Shown piece after piece: positions 20,666-22,629 of a DNA stretch of 64,000 nt. The stretch is taken from NCBI GenBank assembly GCA_013288985.1, contig JABDAT010000002.1, positions 17,857 through 81,856 on the forward strand. Direction: 5' to 3'. The stretch comes from Alphaproteobacteria bacterium. Lineage in GTDB: Bacteria; Pseudomonadota; Alphaproteobacteria; Rickettsiales; JABCZZ01. Each line of letters starts with the position of its first letter. Position 1 is the stretch's first letter. A program made the translations under genes and the position numbers. The notes below the pieces were generated by a model. That model saw only the letters and a program-made list of their open reading frames with translations. It did not search any database and was not told the origin of the DNA.

Positions 20666-21898
20666 ATGTTCACAGTTACAAAAGATGCTGAAATAAAGTT
20701 GGTGGATACTGTTAGCGGTCTTTCTGATGAGGCAGGCAGTTGGCGGTCTGTGTGTTTTTTCTTTAATGAATTATTAGAGCAGTACCGAAGCGATTATCAG
20801 ATTCAGATTGCTGTCAATCTACTCAATGATTTGTTGGTTGCGCATCAAGGAGGGGTATTTGTATGTGCTGACCAGACCATCATACTAGTATGCCGTAATG
20901 TCACAAAAATACAGCTTGATAAGGCAGTTTTTCAGCTGCGGTATTTATTCATGGATGATCCGCTTGCGTATGATGCGGGGGGAGATGAAAACTCTGATTT
21001 CTGCCGTGTGTATGATTTAGGGGTGGAATATGCGGAGTTCTATCAGTTTTGCCGTAAAAAACTCTCACAGAATTCACGTGTGGAATCTACAAATGAACCT
21101 GCGGGGCGGCAGGCAATCTCAAGTGAGCCTGTTTTTGAAGGTGCTTCTAATAAATTTACTCCTGCAAGGCTTGCGCATGTTGAGCATGACTTAAACAAAG
21201 CAGATTTAAGCCGTGTATTCCGTCGTCAGCCCGTCTGCGCGATTACACCTGATTATGAGCCGCGCAAGATATTTGATGAGTATTACATCAGCATTTCGCA
21301 TTTGCGTCAGATGTTGCGTGTGGATACGGACTTTTTTAGTAATCGCTGGCTGTTTGGCTATCTTACGCAATTGCTTGATGAGCGTATGCTGGATTTGATT
21401 TCTATAAGTCCTACGCGTTATTTTGAAGGACCGGTCAGCCTTAATTTTAATATTCACACTATTTTGTCACGGAAATTCAGGGATTTTGATGCGGTTATTA
21501 AACCTGCAGTCAAGGCCTCTATTGTAATTGAGGTGCATATAGGCGATATATTTGGCGACATTTCAGCGTATGTGGCAGCACGCAATGTCCTGCATAAATT
21601 AGGATATAAAGTATGCCTGGATGGGCTTAACAGCCAGAGCATTATGCAGATTAACAGAGAACGCATGGGGTTTGATCTGGCTAAGTTGCAATGGAATGCG
21701 GATCTTGAAGTTGATTTGAATACGGAAGAAAACCAGCATCTCATGAGAGCCATTAAAAATTGTGGCCCTAATCGTGTTATTCTATGCCGTTGCGATACAA
21801 AAAACGCAATCAGTTATGGACAGGCGATGGGTATAAATCTTTTTCAGGGCAGATTTCTTGATAAAATTATAAATCCAAACCAGAAAGTGACTAATTAA
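20666..21898 (+). CDS. Protein with an unknown N-domain and a degenerate EAL-like C-domain
   Basis: EAL landmarks are present in order but substituted: QPVCAI...DEYYISI (for EAL), SLNFNIH (N kept), IVIEVHIGD, CLDGLNS (for DDFG), LAKLQWN (K kept), LCRCDTKN (for AEGVE), LFQGRFLDK. Confidence 0.55.
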   Translation: MFTVTKDAEIKLVDTVSGLSDEAGSWRSVCFFFNELLEQYRSDYQIQIAVNLLNDLLVAHQGGVFVCADQTIILVCRNVTKIQLDKAVFQLRYLFMDDPLAYDAGGDENSDFCRVYDLGVEYAEFYQFCRKKLSQNSRVESTNEPAGRQAISSEPVFEGASNKFTPARLAHVEHDLNKADLSRVFRRQPVCAITPDYEPRKIFDEYYISISHLRQMLRVDTDFFSNRWLFGYLTQLLDERMLDLISISPTRYFEGPVSLNFNIHTILSRKFRDFDAVIKPAVKASIVIEVHIGDIFGDISAYVAARNVLHKLGYKVCLDGLNSQSIMQINRERMGFDLAKLQWNADLEVDLNTEENQHLMRAIKNCGPNRVILCRCDTKNAISYGQAMGINLFQGRFLDKIINPNQKVTN

Positions 21899-22629
21899 TG
21901 TCATTCGTTGAATTACTGCCAGGAATTATCTGGTCGGGCTTTCTTGGGCTAACTATCGGGAATTTTGCTACTAATCCTATTTACAGACTTCCTCGGAATG
22001 AATCGCTCTTTCGGAAAGATCCGTATTGCGGCGATTGCAACGCAAAATTGATGCCGCGTGATTTATTTCCTGTTTTCTCCTGGCTGATGACACGGGGAAA
22101 ATGCCGTTATTGTGGTGCCAAGGTTCCAGGCGCCTATGCAGTTACCGAAGCAGTTATCGGATTATTATTCATTATATGTTATCTGCAATTTGGGTTTTCA
22201 GAACAATTTCTTTTGGTTTCCTTGGGTATTACATCGTTTGTAATGCTGGGGATGATGTTGCTGTTGGATAATTTCTTTTCTAATAAAACGCTCATAGCCT
22301 GTGTCATATTGGGCATGGTCTACCGCACATTGCAGGATGGAAGCATATATGGTTTTATAGGAACGGCCTATATGGGATTGCTGGCAGGTCTTGTAGCCTG
22401 GAAAATATCGGGCAAACCTCTTATCCGTGATGCGGCGGCCTTTCCCGTTTATCTTAAACTTCTGACGGTGGCTGGCATCTGGCTGGCGCCCGTGCGGTTG
22501 TGCGTATTATTGACTGCCGTTTTAATTATTCTTCCTTATTCTAAAGGCAAGCCTTGGCTTACAGAATGGACGATTATTGTAAGCATTATAATATTAATAA
22601 TTTATTCGCAGGTGACCTTAATTTTATAA
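21898..22629 (+). CDS. PilD-like type IV prepilin peptidase homolog lacking the second catalytic-Asp motif
   Basis: N-terminus aligns well with PilD (GNFATNPIYRLP; CGDCNAKLMPRDLFPVFSWLMTRGKCRYCGAKV). The first Asp context is kept (MMLLLDNFF). The G-x-G-D-[FV]-K-L-L site reads FPVYLKLL. TAATG overlap with the upstream gene. Confidence 0.75.
   Translation: MSFVELLPGIIWSGFLGLTIGNFATNPIYRLPRNESLFRKDPYCGDCNAKLMPRDLFPVFSWLMTRGKCRYCGAKVPGAYAVTEAVIGLLFIICYLQFGFSEQFLLVSLGITSFVMLGMMLLLDNFFSNKTLIACVILGMVYRTLQDGSIYGFIGTAYMGLLAGLVAWKISGKPLIRDAAAFPVYLKLLTVAGIWLAPVRLCVLLTAVLIILPYSKGKPWLTEWTIIVSIIILIIYSQVTLIL

Follow-up and report, generated by a model that had tools for sequence, protein, structure and literature searches.

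A 64,000-nt stretch of an uncultured alphaproteobacterial genome (assembly GCA_013288985.1, contig JABDAT010000002.1; hereafter the window, to which all coordinates refer) carries on its plus strand a gene for a 410-aa soluble protein reminiscent of EAL phosphodiesterase domains (20666–21898), directly followed by a gene for a 243-aa polytopic membrane protein related to the prepilin peptidase PilD (21898–22629). What can such a pair do if catalytic residues of both enzyme families are replaced, and does it serve the Tad pilus encoded further upstream? An earlier sequence-only reading of the window had described the two products as degenerate versions of enzyme families in a tightly coupled gene pair, and the residue substitutions and conserved adjacency reported below bear this out. 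The pair is a real but uncharacterised module, since it is conserved across dozens of uncultured alphaproteobacteria. With moderate confidence, we read it as one translationally coupled operon encoding a two-protein signalling module of two pseudoenzymes. This would be a membrane-anchored second-messenger receptor module, with the 410-aa protein, of degenerate GGDEF–EAL-like type, as the candidate cyclic-dinucleotide receptor and the 243-aa protein as a PilD-derived pseudo-prepilin peptidase without the catalytic Asp pair.

The two genes overlap. The TAA stop codon of the first (21896–21898) and the ATG start codon of the second (21898–21900) have one base in common, giving the TAATG overlap (21896–21900, plus strand) that the sequence-only reading had pointed out, and both open reading frames (ORFs) lie exactly as it described them. 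A strong Shine–Dalgarno sequence is not seen ahead of the start of the 243-aa gene, which fits translational coupling of the two genes. Both ORFs are real genes, since their products have many full-length homologs, at 33–76% identity, in many genomes. Promoter and terminator scans gave only chance-level signals, and NCBIfam returned nothing but noise for the 410-aa and 243-aa proteins.

We then asked how often the two genes occur together, a check that had been suggested along with the original description. We looked for relatives of the 410-aa protein in one genome per species; 159 loci encode one, and the best 80 were retained. The loci all come from uncultured metagenome-assembled genomes (MAGs) labelled Alphaproteobacteria or Rickettsiales, a few being mislabelled Azospirillum. 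Of 83 non-redundant loci, 64 have a partner ORF immediately downstream, as detected with a hidden Markov model (HMM) of the pseudo-peptidase family, and the spacing is about −4 to +5 nt in 44 of these 64. Three further loci gave tblastn partner matches with frame problems or contig ends, and three stop at the first gene of the pair. In protein searches, too, the homologs of both proteins have contigs in common, and the gene order is kept at 51–55% identity.

The 243-aa protein was analyzed for its relationship to active prepilin peptidases. The Cys-rich N-terminal region of PilD that had been recognised in it by eye is also found by Pfam, in which PF06750, the N-terminal domain of bacterial A24 peptidases, matches residues 16–98 (E = 4.8e-24). 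The PF01478 peptidase domain gave no Pfam match to the protein even at E ≤ 1, and none of 38 pseudo-peptidase family members matches it at E ≤ 0.1; PF06750 was found in all 38. An HMM built from 52 canonical PilD-type enzymes carrying PF01478 and PF06750 matches residues 10–209 (E = 1.6e-44), and by this profile the 243-aa protein is homologous to PilD well past the N-terminal domain. Compared with PilD/XcpA/GspO (MEROPS A24A; PF06750 plus PF01478), it has the same N-terminal four-Cys zinc-finger "methylase" domain with a G-K pair, and a similar polytopic helical core. However, it is shorter and without a PF01478 match, and its gene stands beside an EAL-like gene and not beside pilus or type II secretion system genes. 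An AlphaFold2 (AF2) model of the protein (predicted local distance difference test score, pLDDT, 95.4) shows a long first helix, a small Cys-bearing ribbon and seven further helices, making eight long helices; a Foldseek search with this model against the PDB gave no match.

Prepilin peptidases are described as having two universally conserved Asp residues (PMC10191384); together these make up the protease site, and A24 peptidases need both of them (PMC3584216, PMC10191384). We located both columns by alignment to the canonical HMM and in a MAFFT alignment of 75 family members, of which 14 had come up in the protein search and 61 are partner ORFs of other genomes. The gap-free, high-confidence HMM alignment places Leu121 in the column of the first catalytic Asp (D-x6-P-D/N context), with FFSN on the canonical IIPD, and MAFFT gives the same register. 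In the segment L121-L122-L123-D124 (22258–22269, plus strand), Asp124 thus lies at +3. The sequence-only reading had the protein keeping the first Asp context (LLLDNFF), and this part of it does not stand. Across the 75 family members, the first-Asp column holds mainly H (19), E (15), L (12), A (9), Q (7) and D (5), and column +3 holds D (24), E (22) and Q (19). Asp124 of LLLD was accordingly rejected as the first catalytic residue, being three residues out of register and in a column that is D/E/Q across the family.

At the second site, F182-P-V-Y185-L-K-L188 (22441–22461, plus strand) takes the place of G-x-G-D-h-K-h. In both alignments Tyr185 stands for the GxGD Asp, with F-P-V-Y-L-K-L-L aligned to G-l-G-D-v-k-l-l in the HMM, so that the replacement of GxGD by FPVY is confirmed. 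This column contains Y (28), W (19), P (6), V (5), Q (5) and others, and Asp in none of the 75 members. An Asp supplied by the RD shortly upstream had been named as the outcome that would overturn the description; the HMM alignment does not place R177-D178 in the catalytic column. These two residues are conserved among close relatives only and vary across the family, and the RD was rejected as a replacement for the second Asp. By alignment, then, the 243-aa protein has lost both catalytic Asps while keeping the zinc-finger "methylase" domain and the polytopic core, and, having lost both, it would be unable to cleave prepilins. The same comparison speaks to the Tad system. TadV/CpaA/FppA belong to the same A24 superfamily and are the enzymes expected near a Tad cluster, but TadV-type peptidases are without the methylase domain and keep both Asps. 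The 243-aa protein shows the reverse of this pattern and is therefore not the Tad processing enzyme, as had been proposed; the loss is stronger than was claimed, because both Asps are gone and not one.

Relocation of the active site to D124 and D178, two acidic residues of this subclade, would leave an atypical prepilin peptidase that is still active; this strikes us as very improbable. Both residues are conserved in the closest relatives, and in the predicted topology D124 ends helix 102–124 and D178 lies in loop 172–183, on the cytoplasmic side and near the position of the PilD active site, but in the family as a whole Asp is not conserved at either position, the glycines of GxGD are replaced by F-P-x, and the absence of PF01478 from all 38 members tested also speaks against an active enzyme.

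To place this family among its relatives, a profile of 38 members was searched against 1.84 billion representatives. At E ≤ 1e-3 the search returned 18,568 proteins, of which most are ordinary relatives of PilD detected by their N-terminal domain; 130 proteins reach E ≤ 1e-30. When these were aligned to the canonical HMM, both Asps were present in none of the first 75 ranks, and a true GxGD starts at rank 86. We estimate the size of the lineage at no fewer than about 85 clusters at 50% identity among these representatives. In a separate PilD-like lineage (P0282, P0291, P0301, P0306 and others; L090 and L092), the first Asp is still present, as is the IPD/N motif, and [D/S]-Y stands for G-D. 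In two of its members (P0301 and P0282) the neighbours are unrelated and there is no EAL-like partner, and one member, a single case, adjoins a gene for S-adenosylhomocysteine hydrolase. Since other degenerate PilD-like lineages have different neighbours, the pairing with an EAL-like protein is specific to the family found in the window. In the literature searched, which was incomplete, we found no description of such a gene pair or of an inactive prepilin-peptidase family.

The cytoplasmic CxxC-x21-CxxC zinc-finger region (22027–22113, plus strand) contains C44, C47, C69 and C72, with G67-K68 before the third Cys. The four Cys are 95–100% conserved in the 75 family members and invariant in 8 canonical enzymes, and G67 and K68 are conserved in at least 90%. 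Together with R30, P32, P58 and E84, these residues are as conserved as in active enzymes, and over the family conservation is higher in the N-terminal domain than in the membrane core, with a mean top-residue frequency of 0.58 versus 0.38. In PilD, the Cys residues bind zinc and, with the adjacent Gly and basic residue, are needed for N-methylation and not for cleavage (PMC3584216). All the methylation-linked residues of PilD are therefore kept, and a methylase-only PilD, which would methylate pilins cut by a separate TadV/CpaA-type peptidase under regulation by its EAL-like partner, has to be weighed. The stronger conservation of the N-terminal domain agrees with this, as do the single S-adenosylhomocysteine hydrolase neighbour in the other degenerate lineage and the lack of a methylase domain in Tad-type peptidases (PMC10191384). 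PilD itself, however, methylates the N-terminus that the same enzyme has just made, and a pilin gene was not found near the pair. We know of no trans-acting pilin methylase, and the S-adenosylmethionine-binding site of PilD is undefined. On these grounds we regard a methylase-only role as quite unlikely.

More than 1100 homologs of the 410-aa protein were found in the protein search. Failure of this protein to match EAL profiles had also been named as an outcome that would speak against the original description. Its own Pfam EAL match (residues 256–398, E = 0.0054) is below threshold, at 16.6 bits against a gathering cutoff of 31.3, yet PF00563 (EAL) matches all 54 relatives tested at E ≤ 0.1, the best at 3.1e-10. 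The AF2 model of the protein has a pLDDT of 87, with a disordered linker at residues 141–160. In Foldseek searches, solved EAL domains match the model at a probability of 1.0 (FimX EAL, 8e-9; LapD, MorA, YahA and PA3825). The top 15 matches are tandem GGDEF–EAL proteins, including MorA (3e-12), the LapD proteins of V. cholerae and P. fluorescens, RbdA, PA0575 and DosP, which align over 434–461 columns and with better E values than the EAL-only matches. Because the best structural matches are tandem proteins over this length, the N-terminal 140 conserved residues (20666–21085, plus strand) are most likely a degenerate GGDEF-type domain. This fold is assigned from the predicted structure; the region has an invariant FQLRYLFMDDPLAY motif among its conserved columns, the GGDEF sequence motif is absent, and the Pfam GGDEF model matches none of 54 family members. 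A PDB profile search with the 410-aa family gave no matches.

The EAL-like domain proper spans residues ~165–410 (21158–21895, plus strand), as judged from Pfam EAL, hhalign, 83 relatives and Foldseek. As had been noted by eye, the EAL landmarks follow in order, with EYY for EAL, DG for DD and CRCDT for AEGVE, and the alignments support each of these equivalences. Using hhalign against an ordinary EAL protein encoded in the same window (5051–6112), we found that the canonical DD corresponds to D319-G320, KxD to K340-L-Q342, and A-E-G-V-E to C374-R375-C376-D377-T378. The domain keeps Q188-P189, E205, N260/N262, E289, D319, K340 and Q394-G395, and it has lost the second Glu in ExxE, the second Asp of DD (G320), the Asp of KxD (Q342) and the Glu of EGVE (R375). 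The complete EAL catalytic set (E of EAL, N, ExxE, DD, KxD, EGVE Glu and QG) is thus not present. Q188, E205, Y207, N260, N262, E289, D319, G320, K340 and W343 are each carried by 82–83 of the 83 family members, and so are R375, C376, D377, Q394, G395 and R396.

Roles of the EAL residues are known from studies of RocR, TBD1265 and YkuI. Read against these roles, the 410-aa protein retains the residues that ligate one metal, along with the Q-P and Q-G motifs, which would contact the base in its pocket. The Asp for the second metal is gone, as are the loop-6 motif and the catalytic Glu. The residue pattern predicts that phosphodiesterase activity is not to be expected and that ligand binding is possible. 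The pocket is invariant yet non-canonical, which speaks for binding, with no hydrolysis, as the conserved function. Most likely, therefore, to judge from the modelled fold and the retained residues, the 410-aa protein binds a cyclic dinucleotide, probably cyclic di-GMP (c-di-GMP), without hydrolysing it. Sensing of c-di-GMP is plausible given the LapD/FimX-like tandem fold of the model and the invariant partial EAL pocket.

Degenerate EAL domains of FimX and LapD are c-di-GMP receptors; the former protein regulates type IV pili, the latter a protease at the membrane. The 410-aa protein resembles both in its predicted tandem GGDEF-like and EAL fold with both motifs degenerate, both are among the best structural matches of its model, and non-catalytic nucleotide binding is predicted for it as well. 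It differs from them in several respects. Identity is only ~12–14%, and transmembrane, HAMP, PAS or REC input domains are missing. In addition, the protein keeps one metal site, has Arg for the EGVE Glu and is without the Arg of EALxR, and its partner is a pseudo-peptidase and not LapG or PilZ.

The favoured reading, a receptor and a pseudo-peptidase acting as one module, suggests the following scheme. The 410-aa cytosolic receptor would dock on the cytoplasmic face of its 243-aa membrane partner, and nucleotide binding would alter the action of that partner at the membrane. Most likely, the partner would hold or modify proteins that carry class III (prepilin-type) signal peptides. The ligand, the physical interaction and the target of the pair are what we infer here, with a complex at the inner membrane in which the membrane partner would act on prepilin-type proteins by binding or methylation and not by cleavage. 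Several observations weigh against this scheme. Around 12 related loci have the 410-aa gene without a partner at the downstream position, and a pilin-like gene was not found near the pair. The N-terminal GGDEF assignment comes from structure prediction, with no support from the Pfam GGDEF model. The EAL pocket is without the Arg of EALxR and the sequence is very distant from every EAL domain of solved structure, and the ligand could be other than c-di-GMP, or there could be none. Finally, the subclade to which the window belongs still has two Asps, D124 and D178, close to the cytoplasmic face, which leaves a small residual chance of remaining or relocated catalysis.

We tentatively propose, while considering it rather doubtful, that the 243-aa protein belongs to the first bacterial GxGD-type intramembrane pseudoprotease family. 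Governed by its own degenerate GGDEF–EAL c-di-GMP receptor, it would either be a nucleotide-gated "holdase" that keeps prepilin-type proteins from being assembled, or it would by itself N-methylate the pilins of a Tad system with a methylase-less peptidase. To our knowledge, and by our literature searches, no bacterial GxGD-type pseudoprotease has been described. The nearest likeness, in concept only, is to the rhomboid pseudoproteases iRhoms and Derlins, in which a conserved non-catalytic intramembrane protease fold binds clients or regulators; their fold and kingdom are unrelated to those of the 243-aa protein. A conserved and diverse lineage without either Asp would give the prepilin-peptidase fold a non-proteolytic life, as in rhomboids. 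A methylase domain kept without peptidase function would also be a natural separation-of-function variant for probing the role of this domain, a question that has stood since pilin N-methylation was found. Being paired with a LapD/FimX-like protein, the lineage also points to a new c-di-GMP output route in a large group of uncultured alphaproteobacteria.

We next considered whether the surroundings of the pair point to its function. Directly upstream and on the same strand is an AsmA-like gene (17792–20596, plus strand; Pfam AsmA, 5e-30), which is found in most related loci. The recurrent order is aroA–cmk on the opposite strand, FYDLN_acid, often an AsmA-like gene, and then the pair, often followed at its 3' side by a cNMP-binding/FHA gene and then by glmS on the opposite strand. 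Since these most persistent neighbours (AsmA-like, FYDLN_acid, aroA–cmk and glmS) are not pilus genes, the pair might have a role that has nothing to do with pili, in the envelope or elsewhere at the membrane, in which the PilD scaffold would be an anchor or transducer, for instance with the upstream AsmA-like lipid-transport protein. The loss of Tad adjacency beyond the closest relatives, described below, and the replacement of the substrate-side IPD/N by FFSN are consistent with such a function. The neighbours are, however, housekeeping genes whose order may reflect clade-wide synteny only, a large subgroup of loci has no AsmA gene between FYDLN and the pair, and the strict conservation of an N-terminal prepilin-peptidase domain would be hard to explain in a mere anchor. 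We therefore see an envelope role as rather unlikely.

Two of these neighbours deserve a description of their own. The gene with cyclic nucleoside monophosphate (cNMP)-binding and FHA domains (22602–23351, minus strand) is convergent on the pseudo-peptidase gene, the 3' ends overlapping by 28 nt, and it recurs in close and in several distant relatives (L005, L008, L009, L011 and L087–L089). The aroA–cmk gene (15084–17102, minus strand) encodes a 672-aa fusion of 5-enolpyruvylshikimate-3-phosphate (EPSP) synthase and cytidylate kinase; it is also fused in related MAGs and served as a synteny anchor.

The Tad/Cpa cluster of the window (6272–15064, assigned by Pfam) comprises cpaB, cpaC, cpaD, cpaE, cpaF, tadB and tadC on the plus strand (6272–13999) and a tadD-like tetratricopeptide repeat (TPR) gene on the opposite strand (14003–15064), and it ends 6.7 kb upstream of the pair. 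A search for flp genes and a canonical TadV/CpaA had been suggested; it was run over the 64-kb window, and no flp/pilin motif and no other A24 peptidase (tadV/cpaA) were found in the six-frame ORFs of this stretch. Nor were tadE/F/G pseudopilin genes found anywhere in the 64 kb. In Caulobacter-type loci, pilA and cpaA occupy the position upstream of cpaB. Here, the gene directly upstream of cpaB (5051–6112, plus strand) encodes the EAL-domain protein mentioned above (Pfam E = 5e-35), with an N-terminus of ~115 aa without assignment. This protein has EAF for EAL and LDFTQSE for ELTE, keeps DD and EGVE, and may be the Tad cluster's own link to c-di-GMP.

The conservation of the Tad layout was examined in 10-kb flanks, using tadC and the TPR gene as queries. 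The layout of Tad–TPR, aroA–cmk and FYDLN–AsmA–pair is also present in two close relatives (L087 and L088, at 72% and 63% identity). It is absent from L089 (70% identity), in which the TPR gene stands alone and is followed by HSP90, and from L002 (66% identity) and L004–L006 (51–55% identity). It is likewise absent from 17 distant loci with at least 2.9 kb visible upstream of aroA–cmk, in which the pair persists. CpaF homologs lie on the same contig as the pair in five further close relatives. Conserved co-localisation with tad genes is thus not a property of the pair. Adjacency to Tad is a trait of the immediate subclade and is much less conserved than the pair itself, and a functional link is neither proved nor excluded by it.

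The sequence-only reading had proposed a regulatory or scaffold module for this Tad pilus. Of this, the neighbourhood to the Tad cluster stands for the window, L087 and L088, and the dedication of the pair to the pilus is weakened, since the layout is missing in L089, L002 and the 17 distant loci. Moreover, the Tad genes and the pair are not one operon, because oppositely oriented housekeeping genes intervene: the opposite-strand TPR and aroA–cmk genes, followed by FYDLN and AsmA, lie between them. A pair that specifically controls the Tad/Cpa pilus 7 kb upstream would agree with the shared position of the cluster in the window and two close relatives and with the CpaF genes on pair-bearing contigs of five more. 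It would agree as well with a Tad cluster without peptidase and pilin genes of its own in the window, with the bona fide EAL gene that abuts cpaB, and with the precedent of FimX as a degenerate EAL protein controlling type IV pili. Weighed against the loci in which the pair does not adjoin Tad genes (L089, L002, L004–L006 and the 17 distant ones), we judge a module dedicated to Tad to be unlikely.

Other features of the window were recorded along the way. A PIN-domain, toxin-like gene (929–1309, plus strand) lies between a class-III aminotransferase gene and astA of an arginine succinyltransferase (ast) operon. Downstream of the pair, genes for a TonB-dependent receptor, a YfiR/HmsC-like periplasmic protein (DUF4154) and a HAMP histidine kinase stand in a row (29761–34122, plus strand), a trio that is conserved in L087–L089. 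YfiR-type proteins usually repress a diguanylate cyclase; the partner in the window is a kinase. Four large ORFs, of 560, 488, 516 and 1011 aa, are without a Pfam match at E ≤ 1e-5 (38285–39964, 55530–56993 and 57082–58629, all on the minus strand, and 58708–61740 on the plus strand, respectively). A 270-aa ORF (53920–54732, plus strand) gives a partial match to the glutamine synthetase catalytic domain, covering profile positions 72–301 of 344, and may be a truncated or divergent glutamine synthetase-like gene.

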